Assembly: GCA_017829005.1 (NCBI GenBank)
Contig: JAGAJF010000148.1
Location: forward strand, 838-64,837
Direction of reading: 5' to 3'
Source of the DNA: Oscillospiraceae bacterium
GTDB taxonomy: Bacteria; Bacillota; Clostridia; Oscillospirales; Ruminococcaceae
Length of the DNA stretch: 64,000 nucleotides
The translations under genes were made by a program, and so were the position numbers. How positions within the stretch are numbered: the first letter of the stretch is position 1; the number at the start of each line of letters is the position of its first letter. Below are positions 1,821 through 6,345 of this stretch, in pieces. The notes beneath the pieces were generated by a model. That model was not told the DNA's origin, ran no database searches, and worked only from the letters and a program-made list of their open reading frames with translations.

Positions 1821-3725
1821 TCAGTATCTGATGATCTCATAGCTCATATCCTCAGTGTTATCGGATATGACTGTGCTTTCGGGAAGATAAAGGGTGAATA
1901 CACATTCCCGCCTTGCTTTTGTTTCGTTCACCCAGACATAGTCCTGCATAGGACAGTTATGGAATGCAAAGGCGCTTATGACCTCGACCCCCTCACTGAC
2001 AGTGACCTTCTCAAGCGATCTTATGCCCGAAAATGCGTCGTGTTCTATCTTCTTTACGGTGGAGGGTATGATTTTTTCCACAGTGGACATATCCTCTTCA
2101 ATGTTGGGCGGAAGATAGCTCATATATGGTCCGTCATCCTCCGAATAGGGCTTGCCGTTAAAGGTATAGGGCTTTATCACCTTAACGCCTGCGGGTATAT
2201 TGAAGGACCGCAGATTGCACAGCATAAATGCCCCCTCTCCAAGATATTCCACAGTATCGGGCATAATTATCTTTTCAAGCCTTGCGTTTCCCGCAAAGCA
2301 TTGGTCACCGATGTACCTTACTTTTTCGCCCATATTGACCGTGCGCAGCTTTTCACAGCTCATAAAGGCTTCCATGCCGATATATTCCACATTTTTTCCA
2401 AGGCTTGCCGTTTCAAGAGAGGAGCACATCAGAAATGCGGAGGGCTGTATCACCTTTACGCTGTCGGGTATGGTCACGCTTGTGATCTTTTTAAAGGCAA
2501 AAGCACTGTCGGCTATTTCTGTTACTGGCAGACCGTCAATTTCATTGGGAATGACTGCCTCTGTATCATTTCCCTCATAGCTTGTTATTACGATATGGTC
2601 GGCGTAAATGTCATACCCAAACAGAAAGCCCTCGCTTATGTCCGAGCCTGTATATCCCTCGTCGGAAGAAGCATATTCTGCTTCAAGGGACAGCCGAAGC
2701 TCTTCTGTGCCGTAATCATAATCGGGGTCTGTATCATTTTCCGAAACATCTGATGTATCGGAAATGAGCTTGCTCTCTGACGTTACAAATGAGGTTTCCG
2801 TCAGCTCTGACGGTTCATTTTCAGGGACATCGGCTTCGGAAAATACGGTTTGCTCATCGGTAATGGGAGCAGTAAATGTCTGTTCGGTCTCTGTGATAAC
2901 GGGAGCGGAGGTCTCGGCAGAACTTTCTGCAGTTTCCTGCACGTAAACCGCTGCCGTTTCAAAAGACTCCGCTGCAGAAGGCTCAGTTATACTATTTTGT
3001 GAAATGCACACAGCCGTGACCACAATGGCTGCTGCCGCAATAACAGCGCATATTTTTGAGGGCTGTGAGATTTTTAAAAGAAATTCTATCTGCTTACAGC
3101 TTTTAAATCTTTTATCGGGGTCAAAGCTTGTACAGCGGGATATGATATACCCCACGGGAAAACGTTCCCTGTTTTCAAAAACAAGTCTCAGGGTCTGCCC
3201 CAGCGCAAAAATATCCGTCCTGAAATCCGTCTGGGCATAGCCGTACTGCTCGGGGGCGGCAAAGCCTTCGGTGCCGAGACAAACGGTGTCCTTGTCCATT
3301 TCCTCCTTGAAAAGTCTGGCGGAGCTCATATCAACTATTTTAAGGCAGCCGCTCCCGTCAAGCATAATGTTTGAGGGCTTGATATCACGGTGTATTATGC
3401 CCAGCATATGCAGTCCGTCTACCGCTCTGCAAAGCTGCACCGCTGCCCGAACAGCTTCCTTATAGGATAAGGACAGCTCCTGCAATGTCTTTCCCTCGAT
3501 GTATTCCTCAAATATTTCAAGGGATTTCTGCCCCTGTTCATTTTCGGATATCACGTTGATTTCGTATATCTTCGGGATATATCTGCATTCGGCGGCTTTC
3601 AGCTTTTCATATACCTTCGGGTCGGAGCATAATTCCTTGCATACAGCCCTGCCGCCATCAGACCTCTCACAGAGCCATACTATGCTCTGCCGAGACTTAT
3701 GTATAACAGAAATTTTCTTGTACAT
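1821..3725 (-). CDS. Membrane Ser/Thr protein kinase with BspA-type (LRR_5) ectodomain
   Basis: HRDIKPSNI, GTEGFAAPEQYG, TDFRTDIFALG; TM ICAVIAAAAIVVTAVCI; repeats IPDSVKVI..SAF..C.SL. Start moved to ATG 3725 (MYKK) because the longer ORF start overlaps the -10 box. DFG position reads DMS. Confidence 0.85.
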   Translation of the reverse strand: MYKKISVIHKSRQSIVWLCERSDGGRAVCKELCSDPKVYEKLKAAECRYIPKIYEINVISENEQGQKSLEIFEEYIEGKTLQELSLSYKEAVRAAVQLCRAVDGLHMLGIIHRDIKPSNIMLDGSGCLKIVDMSSARLFKEEMDKDTVCLGTEGFAAPEQYGYAQTDFRTDIFALGQTLRLVFENRERFPVGYIISRCTSFDPDKRFKSCKQIEFLLKISQPSKICAVIAAAAIVVTAVCISQNSITEPSAAESFETAAVYVQETAESSAETSAPVITETEQTFTAPITDEQTVFSEADVPENEPSELTETSFVTSESKLISDTSDVSENDTDPDYDYGTEELRLSLEAEYASSDEGYTGSDISEGFLFGYDIYADHIVITSYEGNDTEAVIPNEIDGLPVTEIADSAFAFKKITSVTIPDSVKVIQPSAFLMCSSLETASLGKNVEYIGMEAFMSCEKLRTVNMGEKVRYIGDQCFAGNARLEKIIMPDTVEYLGEGAFMLCNLRSFNIPAGVKVIKPYTFNGKPYSEDDGPYMSYLPPNIEEDMSTVEKIIPSTVKKIEHDAFSGIRSLEKVTVSEGVEVISAFAFHNCPMQDYVWVNETKARRECVFTLYLPESTVISDNTEDMSYEIIRY

Positions 3726-3764
3726 AGGCTTGCCGTCCCTGTTTACAAAGTTTACTTTAATGAT

Positions 3765-3836
3765 ATTATACCACAGCACAGGGGTGAAGTCAATCCGAAG
3801 AAAATACTTGACAATTCCGTCACGGCGTGCTATAAT
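3765..3836. promoter_or_regulatory. Back-to-back sigmaA promoters (minus: kinase; plus: rsgA leader)
   Basis: Minus TTGACT(3793-3788)-17-TATAAT(3770-3765); plus TTGACA(3808-3813)-17-TATAAT(3831-3836); both have TGn extension. Confidence 0.85.
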
Positions 3837-3885
3837 AAATAAAATCTTTCTTTCGGGGAAGAAAAAATGAAAGGAGCTGTTTTTG

Positions 3886-3918
3886 ATGACTGTTATATTT
3901 GAGGCGGCAGCTTATTAA
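3886..3918 (+). CDS. Putative leader peptide uORF1 MTVIFEAAAY
   Basis: AAAGGAG SD 9 nt upstream; lies between promoter and attenuator hairpin. Confidence 0.55.
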   Translation: MTVIFEAAAY

Positions 3919-4008
3919 CCGAATATCGGGGCTGAAAATTTTCTGAGGGGCTTTATGCCTTTGATTTTCTGCGCCCAAATGAGCCTTTTCGTGAGTAAGA
4001 AAAATTTC

Positions 4009-4036
4009 TGCACACCAAAGGGGTGTGTATTTTTTT
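4009..4036 (+). terminator. Attenuator-type terminator inside the rsgA leader
   Basis: tgcacacc-aaagg-ggtgtgta stem followed by T7. Confidence 0.65.
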
Positions 4037-4079
4037 ACCATTTTGCGAAAAATGCCGCCGTGAAAGGAGATGTTGTACT

Positions 4080-4169
4080 ATGAAAAAAATTTACGAAGCA
4101 GCAAGCATTAAACATTACGGAGGTAATACAAATGAATTTTACAACAGATATGAGAGACTACGGATATAA
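4080..4169 (+). CDS. Putative leader peptide uORF2 MKKIYEAASIKHYGGNTNEFYNRYERLRI, overlapping rsgA SD and start
   Basis: AAAGGAG SD 10 nt upstream; shares I-(F/Y)-EAA with uORF1. Confidence 0.5.
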   Translation: MKKIYEAASIKHYGGNTNEFYNRYERLRI

Positions 4170-5202
4170 GGGCAGCAAAATTATCGACGAAAAGCACATT
4201 CCCGCAAGGATAACCGCCGTTCACAGGGAACGCTTTGAAGCGGTATGCGGCTACGGACAGGTAAGCGCAAGGATAAAAACGGGAGCCTACAAGGACGGCT
4301 TGACCGAATATCCCACAGCAGGAGATTTTGTCTCCATCGAATATAATCCCATCGGCGACAGCCTTATTGCCGATACCCTGCCCAGAAGCTCGTTTTTCTC
4401 ACGCAAGGACCCCACCCCGGGACGTGGAGAACAGGCGGTGGCAGCCAATTTTGACTATGTTTTTATTATGCAGTCCTTAAATCACGACCTTAATCTCAGG
4501 CGTATGGAACGATATCTGACCCTTTCGTGGCAGTCGGGAGCAATACCCGTGATACTGCTTACAAAGGCGGATATTTCGGATAATATAAGCGGTGCCGTAC
4601 GGGATATCTCAAAAGCGGCTGCGGGAGCGGATATCATTCCCGTAAGCTCGAAAACCGGCTATGGTCTTGACAGGCTGGGGGATTATATATGCCCCCGAAA
4701 GACCGCTGTGTTCCTCGGCTCCTCGGGAGTGGGAAAATCCAGCCTTGTAAATGCTCTTGCAGGTGAGGAGATAATGAACGTGAACGGCATAAGAGAGGAC
4801 GACAGCAAGGGCAGGCACACCACCACCCACCGCCAGCTTGTGCTTCTCAAAAGCGGAGCTATGATAATCGACACTCCGGGTATGAGAGAGCTTGGAATGT
4901 GGGACGCCGCCGAGGGCATTTCCACAGCCTTTGAAGATGTGGAGAAGCTTGCCTCTATGTGCAGATTTTCCGACTGCCGCCACGAGAATGAGCCGGGCTG
5001 TGCGGTAAGGGCAGCTATTGAACGGGGAGAGCTTTCCGAGGAACGTCTTCTGAGCTACAAAAAGCTTGCTTCCGAATCGGAATCCAATGACAAGCAGGAT
5101 ATGCTCAGAAAAAAGCGTGAGAAGTTCAAGGACATTGCTCTCCAAAACAAAAACCGCCGAAAGACCGAAAGGCGTTTCGGCGGGAAGAATGAGTACAGAT
5201 AA
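4132..5202 (+). CDS. rsgA: Ribosome small subunit-dependent GTPase A (long ~350-aa form)
   Basis: Circularly permuted GTPase: TKAD, GSSGVGKSS, GRHTT, DTPG; Zn finger CRFSDCRHENEPGC. Confidence 0.92.
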   Translation: MNFTTDMRDYGYKGSKIIDEKHIPARITAVHRERFEAVCGYGQVSARIKTGAYKDGLTEYPTAGDFVSIEYNPIGDSLIADTLPRSSFFSRKDPTPGRGEQAVAANFDYVFIMQSLNHDLNLRRMERYLTLSWQSGAIPVILLTKADISDNISGAVRDISKAAAGADIIPVSSKTGYGLDRLGDYICPRKTAVFLGSSGVGKSSLVNALAGEEIMNVNGIREDDSKGRHTTTHRQLVLLKSGAMIIDTPGMRELGMWDAAEGISTAFEDVEKLASMCRFSDCRHENEPGCAVRAAIERGELSEERLLSYKKLASESESNDKQDMLRKKREKFKDIALQNKNRRKTERRFGGKNEYR

Positions 5203-5249: not shown

Positions 5250-5278
5250 TTGACAAATCCGCTGTTTGGCTGTATAAT
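5250..5278 (+). promoter_or_regulatory. sigmaA promoter
   Basis: TTGACA-17-TATAAT. Confidence 0.85.
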
Positions 5279-5329: not shown

Positions 5330-5357
5330 AAAGCCTTGCTTTTTGCAAGGCTTTTTT
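5330..5357 (+). terminator. Intrinsic terminator ~50 nt downstream of the promoter, upstream of the radical SAM gene
   Basis: aaagccttgc-ttttt-gcaaggcttt followed by ttt. Confidence 0.75.
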
Positions 5358-5406: not shown

Positions 5407-6345
5407 ATGGAAAACCCCTTCCCCTATACCGATACCAACAAACGCTACCACACCCAGAGCTATTATCTGAAAAATAGATTTGGCTGCAAGGTGATGAAAA
5501 TATCCTTAAACTGCGGCTTTACCTGCCCGAATATCGACGGCACAAAGGGCGTTGGCGGCTGTACCTACTGCCTTGAGGGCAGCGGCGAATTTGCAGGCTC
5601 TCCCTGTATGACCGTTACCGAACAGTTTGAAGCGGTGAAGCAGGCAATGAACAGAAAATGGAGCGAGGGGCTTTACATTCCCTATTTTCAGGCAGGCACC
5701 AACACCTACGGCTCTGCCGAAAAAATTCGCTCTATGACCGAGGAGGCGCTGGGGCTTGAAAATGTTGTTGGCATTGCCATATCCACCCGTCCCGACTGCA
5801 TTTCGGACAGCGTGCTTGATATACTGAGCGATTTAAATGACCGCACCTATCTTACGGTGGAGCTGGGGCTTCAGACCGTTCACGACGCAACAGCCGCAAG
5901 GATAAACCGATGTCACACCTACGGGGACTTCCTCGGCTGCTGCGAAAGGCTTTTTAAAAGAAATATCAATGTCTGCGTTCATCTTATAAACGGACTGCCG
6001 GGGGAAAGCTTCGATATGATGCTCACATCTGCCCGTGAGATGTCCCGCCTGCCCCTTCACAGCATAAAGCTTCATCTTCTGCATATACTCAAGGGGACGG
6101 TCATGGGAGAGCAGTATCTCAGGGGAGAGATAACTCCTCTTACTCTTGAGGAATACGTTCATATCGTCTGCGAGCAGATAAAGCTTTTCCCCCCCGAGCT
6201 GATAATACAGCGTGTAACGGGAGACGGCGGACGGGACGTGCTTCTTGCGCCCGAATGGAGCCTTAAAAAATTTACGGTAATGAACGAGATAGACAAGACC
6301 TTTGCCCGTGAGGGAAGCTATCAGGGAATAAACTACCGAAAATAA
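5407..6345 (+). CDS. TIGR01212-family radical SAM protein (YtqA/YhcC-like)
   Basis: GFTCPNIDG...GGCTYC, YFQAGTNTY, STRPDC, ELGLQT, IKLHLLH. Confidence 0.9.
   Translation: MENPFPYTDTNKRYHTQSYYLKNRFGCKVMKISLNCGFTCPNIDGTKGVGGCTYCLEGSGEFAGSPCMTVTEQFEAVKQAMNRKWSEGLYIPYFQAGTNTYGSAEKIRSMTEEALGLENVVGIAISTRPDCISDSVLDILSDLNDRTYLTVELGLQTVHDATAARINRCHTYGDFLGCCERLFKRNINVCVHLINGLPGESFDMMLTSAREMSRLPLHSIKLHLLHILKGTVMGEQYLRGEITPLTLEEYVHIVCEQIKLFPPELIIQRVTGDGGRDVLLAPEWSLKKFTVMNEIDKTFAREGSYQGINYRK

Follow-up and report, generated by a model that had tools for sequence, protein, structure and literature searches.

The closest known systems to the regulatory leader described here are the leader-peptide attenuators of Firmicutes (ermC/ermB, cat-86, B. 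subtilis bmrB-bmrCD, vmlR (PMC9226507), Listeria lmo0919 and hflXr), with which it shares a consensus promoter, a strong Shine-Dalgarno (SD) sequence, a very short upstream open reading frame (uORF) and an intrinsic terminator ahead of the gene. The leader lies in a 64,000-nt stretch of DNA from an Oscillospiraceae bacterium (assembly GCA_017829005.1, contig JAGAJF010000148.1; this whole stretch is referred to as the window, and all coordinates are window positions), where positions 3808-4169 comprise a promoter, a 5′ leader of ~290 nt and the end of a second uORF (uORF2) that overruns the start of the gene, a paralog of rsgA (rsgA2, encoding RsgA2). A second leader ORF next to the ribosome-binding site (RBS) of the gene is also a feature of the erm systems (ermBL/ermBL2, PMC8274638), and as with hflXr, the client is a paralog of a ribosome GTPase. 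Comparison with sequences from other genera places the leader in a conserved, patchily distributed RNA leader family of Bacillota, spanning Clostridia and Bacilli, and we propose that it is probably a ribosome-occupancy-sensing attenuator of the accessory rsgA.

Relative to the literature and Rfam the design is new: the kind of control element is known, but its core, which lies at the nucleotide level, is unusual. In keeping with a ribosome-mediated attenuator, an SD-led short ORF is conserved in 103 of 105 distinct leaders (this and all further family counts are among the matches listed in the scan described below), and an intrinsic terminator precedes the gene. Unlike the erm, cat and bmrB type, however, the family has no conserved amino-acid arrest motif such as those of ErmCL, ErmBL or CatA86L. 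Instead, an SD-like word is held at a fixed distance from the uORF stop codon, an anti-SD sequence in cis can pair with the SD of the uORF itself, the terminators are mostly tandem and no antiterminator can be demonstrated.

Other systems resemble the leader in part. In Streptomyces coelicolor, translation inhibitors induce the WblC/WhiB7 regulon, which reportedly includes an RsgA/EngC paralog (SCO6149, the housekeeping copy being SCO5211), 16 GNATs, 7 methyltransferases, ABC proteins, TetM and HflX (PMC7157823). This uORF system also senses translation stress, and it governs nearly the same gene classes as the present leader, but it acts through one uORF leader and a trans-acting transcription factor, whereas here each gene or operon has its own leader in cis; the leaders show no sequence similarity, and SCO6149 and RsgA2 are likened by class, not by orthology. 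The toiL-topAI uORF of E. coli senses several classes of ribosome inhibitors (PMC12121999); there, as would be the case here, ribosomes stalled on the uORF reshape the leader and govern premature termination, although the system is Rho-dependent, Gram-negative, unrelated in sequence and without an SD-like word or anti-SD design. In Bacillales, uORFC-6-1 upstream of hflX, which carries an Arg-Leu-Arg motif (PMC8632094), is likewise a conserved uORF set within RNA structure before a ribosome-rescue GTPase; its motif and structure differ from those of the present family, in which none of the 103 peptides encoded by the first uORF (uORF1) contains Arg-Leu-Arg.

A leader family in Clostridia and Bacilli

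Upstream of RsgA2 orthologs from six other genera (49-61% protein identity), we found the same arrangement and the same sequence blocks as in the window. All relatives identified solely by protein homology had a AACCGAATA-type word, which in locus L011 carries a single substitution, and CCTTTCG was exact in 5 of 6 of these relatives before any pattern was used. Only then were the words AAYYGAAYA and CCTTTCG put into a scan pattern (GAAAGGRG, gap, AAYYGAAYA, gap, CCTTTCG). The pattern demanded no start codon, stop codon or terminator, and was scanned over one genome per prokaryotic species, returning at least 120 loci, of which about 105 of those listed are true and distinct. The listed matches come from Oscillospiraceae, Ruminococcus, Acutalibacteraceae, Lachnospiraceae, Christensenellaceae and Anaerocolumna as well as from Paenibacillus, Lysinibacillus, Heyndrickxia, Shouchella and Gorillibacterium. 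Culturable carriers among them include Ruminococcus sp. JE7B6, Anaerocolumna jejuensis DSM 15929, Lysinibacillus odysseyi NBRC 100172, Shouchella rhizosphaerae DSM 21911 and Paenibacillus spp. No second copy of the leader was found in the genome to which the window belongs. Because uORF1, the terminator and the uORF2 module recur at orthologous and non-orthologous loci of many genera, these elements are more than chance.

The initial annotation had not recognised the leader motif as one already described, and this judgement holds. In Rfam 15 the window leader matched nothing better than E = 1.2, and seven relatives gave no leader match at E <= 1. In the open-access literature we found no description of an rsgA-associated uORF leader, and the uORF motif surveys PMC8632094 and PMC11109978 list no rsgA-associated motif. 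The family is thus apparently undescribed in both.

From 5′ to 3′, family members consist of a promoter, a hairpin (P0), SD1 (CGAAAGGAG), uORF1 with its stop codon fused to AAYYGAAUA, a long irregular hairpin (P2/P3), a linker ending in AAGUAA, the anti-SD CCUUUCG(UG), a small hairpin (P4) and a terminator (T1), followed in most copies by a second terminator-like hairpin (T2) and, in about half of the rsgA-linked copies, by SD2 and uORF2 over the gene start. The initial annotation had already listed the promoter, the ~290-nt leader, uORF1, the terminator, SD2 and uORF2 of the window, all of which are present within a base or two of where it had placed them. The window promoter (3808-3836, plus strand, as are all leader features), TTGACA-17-TGcTATAAT, is a sigma-70 promoter that matches the consensus at 12 of 12 positions and has an extended -10 element. 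The region contains 10 promoter-like sites against 3.7 expected, and promoters equivalent to the one at 3808-3836 precede the leader in other genera. From the promoter position, transcription is predicted to start at ~3843.

The predicted transcript begins with P0, a 5′-terminal hairpin at 3845-3862 in minimum free energy (MFE) folds, just upstream of SD1. Most family members have a 5′ hairpin at this place, with other sequences (AUCUGC/GCAGAU, GUUUGC/GCAAAC, etc.). At window positions 3846-3876, a 5′ pyrimidine tract, CUUUCUUUCG (P0 tract CUUUCUUUC), can pair with SD1 (UGAAAGGA) instead of forming P0. This alternative appears in the MFE fold of the full-length leader and is not seen in other genera, whose 5′ hairpins differ.

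The gene behind the leader, at 4132-5202 on the plus strand, encodes a protein of 356 amino acids with a basic C-terminal tail. RsgA2 matches PF03193 at 2.6e-47 with 174 of 174 profile positions covered, scores 160 bits against TIGR00157 (cut-off 100), has G motifs in its GTPase domain and retains the C-terminal zinc finger (CxxxxCxHx5C) as CRFSDCRHENEPGC; its best relatives in the PDB are E. coli RsgA (2e-37). By these profile matches, we regard it as a bona fide member of the RsgA/YjeQ/EngC family. A canonical rsgA of 293 amino acids adjoins a PASTA-domain gene on another contig of the same genome, so the window gene is an extra copy; this agrees with the initial annotation, which had described a long-form paralog under a region of leader ORFs and a terminator. 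The two proteins are 28% identical, and the RsgA2 paralog occurs in 15 of 121 sampled genomes of the same family. The PASTA-linked copy elsewhere, the low identity and this distribution rule out the housekeeping rsgA (cpgA/yloQ locus) as the identity of the gene.

A short reading frame with a nucleotide-level core

In the window, uORF1 (3886-3918) encodes MTVIFEAAAY in 10 codons followed by TAA, and starts 9 nt after SD1 (GAAAGGAG, 3869-3876). Across the family, the SD-proximal start codon, ATG in 99 cases, is in frame with a stop codon in the 103 leaders mentioned above, at a spacing of 4-13 nt from SD1 (mode 9). In 102 leaders, the end of the stop codon lies between -2 and +1 nt of AAYYGAAYA; in the window, the corresponding word, AACCGAATA (3917-3925), overlaps the stop codon. 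The frame itself varies in length between 8, 9, 10, 11, 12, 13 and 14 codons, all indels being of whole codons. Since start, frame and stop are kept and indels respect codons, uORF1 shows the signature of translation, and we infer that it is actually translated.

The encoded peptide is poorly conserved, and by alignment the conserved part lies in the nucleotides. Counting back from the stop codon, codon -5 of the 103 uORFs specifies Glu in 66, Met in 22 and Lys in 9, with Arg, Gly, Thr, Leu and Val in addition. Its third position is G in all but one of the 103 (1.92 bit) and is thus under tighter constraint than the two positions before it. Codon -4 follows as GUN (Val in 95 of 103), its wobble base being A or G in 97. 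Because the wobble base of codon -5 is invariant while the residues vary, the object under selection is the nucleotide word R-W-G-G-U-R, often extended to GGUGAUY. This extended form is the complement of the 16S rRNA 3′ end, and the G-GUR word is therefore an internal SD-like word. It is located exactly 6 nt upstream of the last sense codon, so that with the stop codon in the A site it would stand at the normal SD distance from the P site. A ribosome in this position would have AAYYGAAUA in its mRNA channel and P2, which starts ~9-12 nt past the stop codon, at its leading edge. The window core, GAGGCG (3901-3906; Glu-Ala at codons -5/-4), keeps the GG, Ala (GCG) at codon -4 being a rare variant.

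These observations bear on how the initial annotation had read the region, namely as two homologous leader peptides that stall ribosomes at an IxEAA motif. The shared M-x-x-I-(F/Y)-E-A-A of uORF1 and uORF2 is literally there, but is confined to the window genome and a congener. In the leaders of other relatives uORF1 recurs nearly throughout, without IxEAA as a conserved motif: over the 103 uORFs the constraint lies on the G-GUR nucleotides. In its full form, that reading would have a drug-dependent arrest peptide (IxEAA together with a lincosamide, macrolide or pleuromutilin) stall in uORF1 and free an antiterminator, and a further arrest in uORF2 open the RBS. The SD, short ORF, terminator and second ORF over the RBS do resemble erm, cat and bmrB leaders, Val/Ile-rich uORF peptides recur in the family (x-V-I at codons -4/-3), and the client genes look resistance-like. 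Against this, the residues at codon -5 are chemically unlike one another before an invariant wobble base, the EAA of the window is a rare variant, uORF2 lacks the core and encodes unrelated peptides in different genera, no antiterminator was found, and the pairing proposed between the two uORF regions lies downstream of T1. We consider such an arrest peptide improbable.

The prfB +1 and dnaX -1 frameshift sites have internal SD-like words that influence the ribosome during elongation or termination. As at those sites, the word in uORF1 lies a few nucleotides before the decisive codon and a hairpin follows just downstream, but here there is neither a slippery sequence nor an open frame after the stop. 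Readthrough of the stop codon or frameshifting into the terminator was rejected as a candidate mechanism because no frame stays open past the uORF1 stop (median 15, 2 and 12 codons); in many copies, a second in-frame stop follows two codons after the first.

Leader structure, terminators and the second reading frame

SD1 forms the 5′ strand of a long-range helix, P1, whose 3′ strand is the cis anti-SD. In the window this is CCTTTTCG at 3984-3991, a variant (CCUUUUCG) of the family consensus AACCUUUCGUG; its duplex with the SD1 region (-11.9 kcal/mol) is formed in the MFE fold of the window leader. The same anti-SD can also pair, more weakly, with the G-GUR word (GAGGU:ACCUU, in 78-99% of sequences). 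Between the two strands of P1, the P2/P3 hairpin of the window occupies 3928-3976 in the MFE fold, with the base GGGC/GCCC and a tip hairpin at 3946-3962. The family base is GGYRC/GYRCC, and in an alignment of 98 leaders its 6 bp are 90.7% paired, and each of these pairs shows changes in both strands. In the same alignment, T1 is 95% paired with many compensatory changes, and the structure as a whole scored above all 500 shuffles and all slid controls. P4 (CUAUAAC/GUUGUAG) also has visibly compensating variants, e.g. CUGAAU/AAUCAG.

Structure of this kind could also be expected of an RNA sensor, either a riboswitch or a mimic bound by a protein such as RsgA, in which the P1-closed domain would bind a small molecule or a protein and the short ORF would be secondary. 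Highly conserved unpaired junction words (AACUGAAUA, AAAGUAACC) flank the covarying P2/P3, which an invariant helix closes in an aptamer-like manner, and the window leader folds somewhat better than shuffled sequences (z = -2.1). A pure aptamer, however, would have no need of the start codon, SD spacing, stop codon and frame that are kept through whole-codon indels; moreover, the client genes share no metabolite and Rfam holds no relative. This makes an RNA sensor unlikely.

Downstream of the anti-SD, a terminator scan identified T1 in the window as an intrinsic terminator with an 8-bp stem and 5-nt loop (4009-4029), a U7 tract (T7, 4030-4036) and an upstream A-tract. The window leader has this one terminator and lacks T2, which elsewhere in the family takes the form CCGCAG...CUGCGG-AUUUUUGCG. 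In many copies (L020-L139), the T2 arms carry SD-like and anti-SD-like words (CCGCAGAAAG ... CUUUCUGCGG), so that a single leader may hold up to seven such words: SD1, G-GUR, the cis anti-SD, the two T2 arms, SD2 and the SD of the gene.

A subgroup of leaders (L023, L024, L026, L041, L048, L092, L097, L112, L128, L135 and others) has AACUGAA or AACCGAA after the uORF1 stop, and shortly past the last terminator a conserved CCCAUUUUCAG(UU) contains the exactly complementary UUCAGUU or UUCGGUU. The complement matches the variant of its own leader: the cognate word is present in 16 of 72 and the non-cognate one in 1-2, and in the other set in 3 of 20 vs 0. This pair could form a long-range helix limited to read-through transcripts. 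As a general helix of the family, this pairing of the post-stop AACUGAA with a UUCAGUU beyond the second terminator was rejected, as only 16/72 and 3/20 leaders have it, and we regard it as a feature of the subgroup.

Beyond T1, SD2 (GAAAGGAG, 4062-4069, identical to SD1) precedes uORF2 (MKKIYEAASIKHYGGNTNEFYNRYERLRI, 29 codons, 4080-4169), which is out of frame with rsgA2 and ends 38 nt inside the gene. As the initial annotation had described, uORF2 runs over both the rsgA2 SD (GGAGG, 4119-4123) and the ATG at 4132. An SD-preceded, out-of-frame uORF over the SD and start of rsgA is present in 39 of 63 rsgA-linked leaders, about 30 of the 39 having the GAAAGGAG-N-UGUU context seen at SD1. By its recurrence, uORF2 is a module of these leaders. 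Its peptides are unrelated between genera, its stop position is not fixed and the GG word is missing; a resemblance to the accompanying uORF1 is seen only in the window and in its 96%-identical congener L006.

The initial annotation had further noted that the EAA codons of uORF1 (ggcggca, 3903-3909) can pair with tgccgcc just upstream of SD2 (4053-4059), and had proposed that stalling first relieves termination and then controls initiation. The two segments are indeed exact complements (duplex -16.5 kcal/mol), and both the MFE and the centroid fold of the full leader contain their pairing. The complementarity is specific to the genus, however: it is identical, and so uninformative, in congener L006, and by eye no tgccgcc was seen upstream of SD2 in those other genera that were looked at. 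The pairing cannot relieve termination at 4036 because 4053-4059 lies downstream of T1, and at most it might shape the translation of read-through transcripts.

Proposed ribosome occupancy sensing and the client genes

Among the matches listed, the first gene downstream of the leader is an RsgA paralog in 68 loci and a kinase of the APH fold (Pfam PF01636) in about 20. Other first genes encode a GNAT acetyltransferase (3), a DrrA-like ABC ATPase (3), a SAM methyltransferase (2) and, once each, an ABC exporter, a protein-kinase-like protein and a nitroreductase-like protein. The APH-fold kinases, GNATs, ABC proteins and methyltransferases fit a translation-stress or antibiotic response. At ~30 listed loci, APH-fold or GNAT genes lie behind the RsgA paralog on the same strand. 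RsgA2 stands together with an APH-fold, GNAT or fused APH-GNAT gene at L023, L026, L032, L046, L047, L050, L052 and L053, and the same order is found at L099, L122, L131, L133, L134, L139 and others. This arrangement suggests that the accessory RsgA and the APH/GNAT genes are a functional unit, the enzymes of which may modify either drugs or ribosomal components.

A second type of uORF leader was found upstream of distant RsgA2 orthologs at L014 (~1330-1440) and L015 (~1315-1428). Here the uORF is 18-19 codons long (MTNRINVEIVFNREVLKK and MKKNNGKLDIVTEKEVLKK, ending in REVLKK and KEVLKK), and its codons -5/-4 again read GAG-GUN. A GGAGGUG...CACCUCC hairpin follows immediately; its ACCUCC anti-SD adjoins, and could alternatively pair with, the rsgA SD. 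Having no terminator, this leader looks like a translational attenuator. Because two loci carry a second uORF leader type, RsgA2 has seemingly been placed under ribosome-sensing uORFs repeatedly.

For the leader family to which the window belongs, we favour the following mechanism. The nascent leader would fold according to ribosome presence on uORF1 and to how long the ribosome stays there, since SD1 can be bound either by a 30S subunit or by the cis anti-SD. At the stop codon, the anti-SD of the ribosome itself would pair with the G-GUR word, which the cis anti-SD could bind more weakly, and a ribosome held there would cover AAYYGAAUA and abut the hairpin. Two folds, with SD1:anti-SD closed or open, would then decide whether the polymerase stops at 4036 (T1, and T2 where present), and read-through transcripts would be checked again at uORF2, acting as a second, translational gate. 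In healthy cells, rsgA2 would be off, and it would be induced when translation is disturbed, most plausibly at the 30S subunit, by drugs or by defective ribosomes. We infer the direction of the switch and its inducing signal only from the client genes and the actinobacterial parallel.

Several results weigh against occupancy sensing as formulated here. P1, on which the two folds depend, never varies and was part of the scan pattern; for a helix both invariant and preselected, covariation carries no weight. No antiterminator competing with T1 was found. When ribosome footprints on uORF1 were masked, T1 was never lost from the MFE folds of the window leader and three relatives. The 3′ side of P2 and the 5′ side of T1 are complementary (UGUGC:GCACA, 78% pairable), but cognate duplexes were no better than swapped ones, and the candidate antiterminator pairings (P2-3′:T1-5′ and 1:4), while consensus-pairable, showed no covariation above shuffles. 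Two or three terminator-like hairpins lie within 200 nt past the anti-SD in 82 of 104 leaders, more than a simple switch of one hairpin would account for. None of the client enzymes comes from a known resistance gene, and their best NCBIfam matches are weak, those of the APH-fold clients being to CotS-type kinases. Lastly, the strict pattern was found in 0 of 401 genomes sampled evenly over the phylum, so that the family, for all its breadth, is sparse and patchy.

Since most leaders carry tandem terminators, it is also worth asking whether the switch works through RNA polymerase itself or on the two hairpins together. In processive antitermination, the P1-closed fold would make the polymerase ignore both tandem terminators, and a ribosome parked at the uORF1 stop, tethered by the SD-like word, would block that fold, such that the gene is on when functional 30S subunits fail to load at SD1. 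The tandem hairpins, the lack of a local antiterminator among our candidates, the fixed geometry of SD-like word, 6 nt, last codon, stop and conserved word, and the mutually exclusive partnering of SD1 and the cis anti-SD are all in line with this idea. Nevertheless, no similarity to put, EAR or LoaP-dependent leaders was found in Rfam, and the window itself has one terminator only, making processive antitermination quite improbable. The prediction of T1 in every modelled state could also mean that the leader does not regulate at all, T1 being a leaky insulator or the end of a small transcript for a 10-amino-acid micropeptide, with rsgA2 read at a constant low level. This is highly improbable, as the whole leader, including its non-coding words and spacing, is conserved before unrelated genes in many genera, and the uORF peptide itself is poorly conserved.

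A more specific form of occupancy sensing, which we hold to be rather unlikely but worth stating, is that the leader measures the anti-SD function of the 30S subunits of the cell and is a cis-acting quality sensor of the small subunit. SD1, G-GUR and the cis copy of the 16S 3′ end (CCUUUCG) would here compete for each other. Only mature, drug-free 30S subunits would load at SD1 and park at the stop codon, leaving the leader open and the tandem terminators active, whereas with immature, damaged or blocked subunits the SD1:anti-SD helix would close and the polymerase would pass. Readthrough would then switch on the accessory RsgA, along with kinases and acetyltransferases whose target is the ribosome and not a drug.

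If occupancy sensing is correct, many Clostridia and Bacilli, from rumen and gut anaerobes to soil Paenibacillus, would share an undescribed cis-regulatory RNA linking ribosome status to a small set of genes, those for an accessory 30S GTPase, APH-fold kinases, GNATs, methyltransferases and ABC proteins. The accessory RsgA would be an inducible ribosome factor comparable to HflXr or to the WhiB7-controlled actinobacterial paralogs, and the uncharacterised kinase and acetyltransferase genes would be candidates for resistance or ribosome modification. The design would represent a variation on the uORF attenuator, combining an SD-like word at constant spacing from the stop with an anti-SD in cis and tandem terminators.

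Additional promoter sequences flank the leader and rsgA2 in the window. On the minus strand, a promoter (TTGACT-17-TGnTATAAT, 3793-3765, 11 of 12 consensus positions) stands back-to-back with the leader promoter, 14 nt from its -35 box, and is the probable promoter of the LRR/Ser-Thr-kinase gene on its left (ORF 1821-3779, with the ATG near 3725 as its likely start). On the other side, a perfect promoter, TTGACA-17-TATAAT, is located at 5250-5278, followed ~50 nt on by a strong terminator with a U-run (5330-5354), 3′ of which a radical-SAM gene (PF04055 and PF16199) starts at 5407. The segment 5250-5360 may encode a small transcript of ~75 nt, be a terminator-containing leader of the radical-SAM gene, or hold an rsgA terminator overlapping a promoter.

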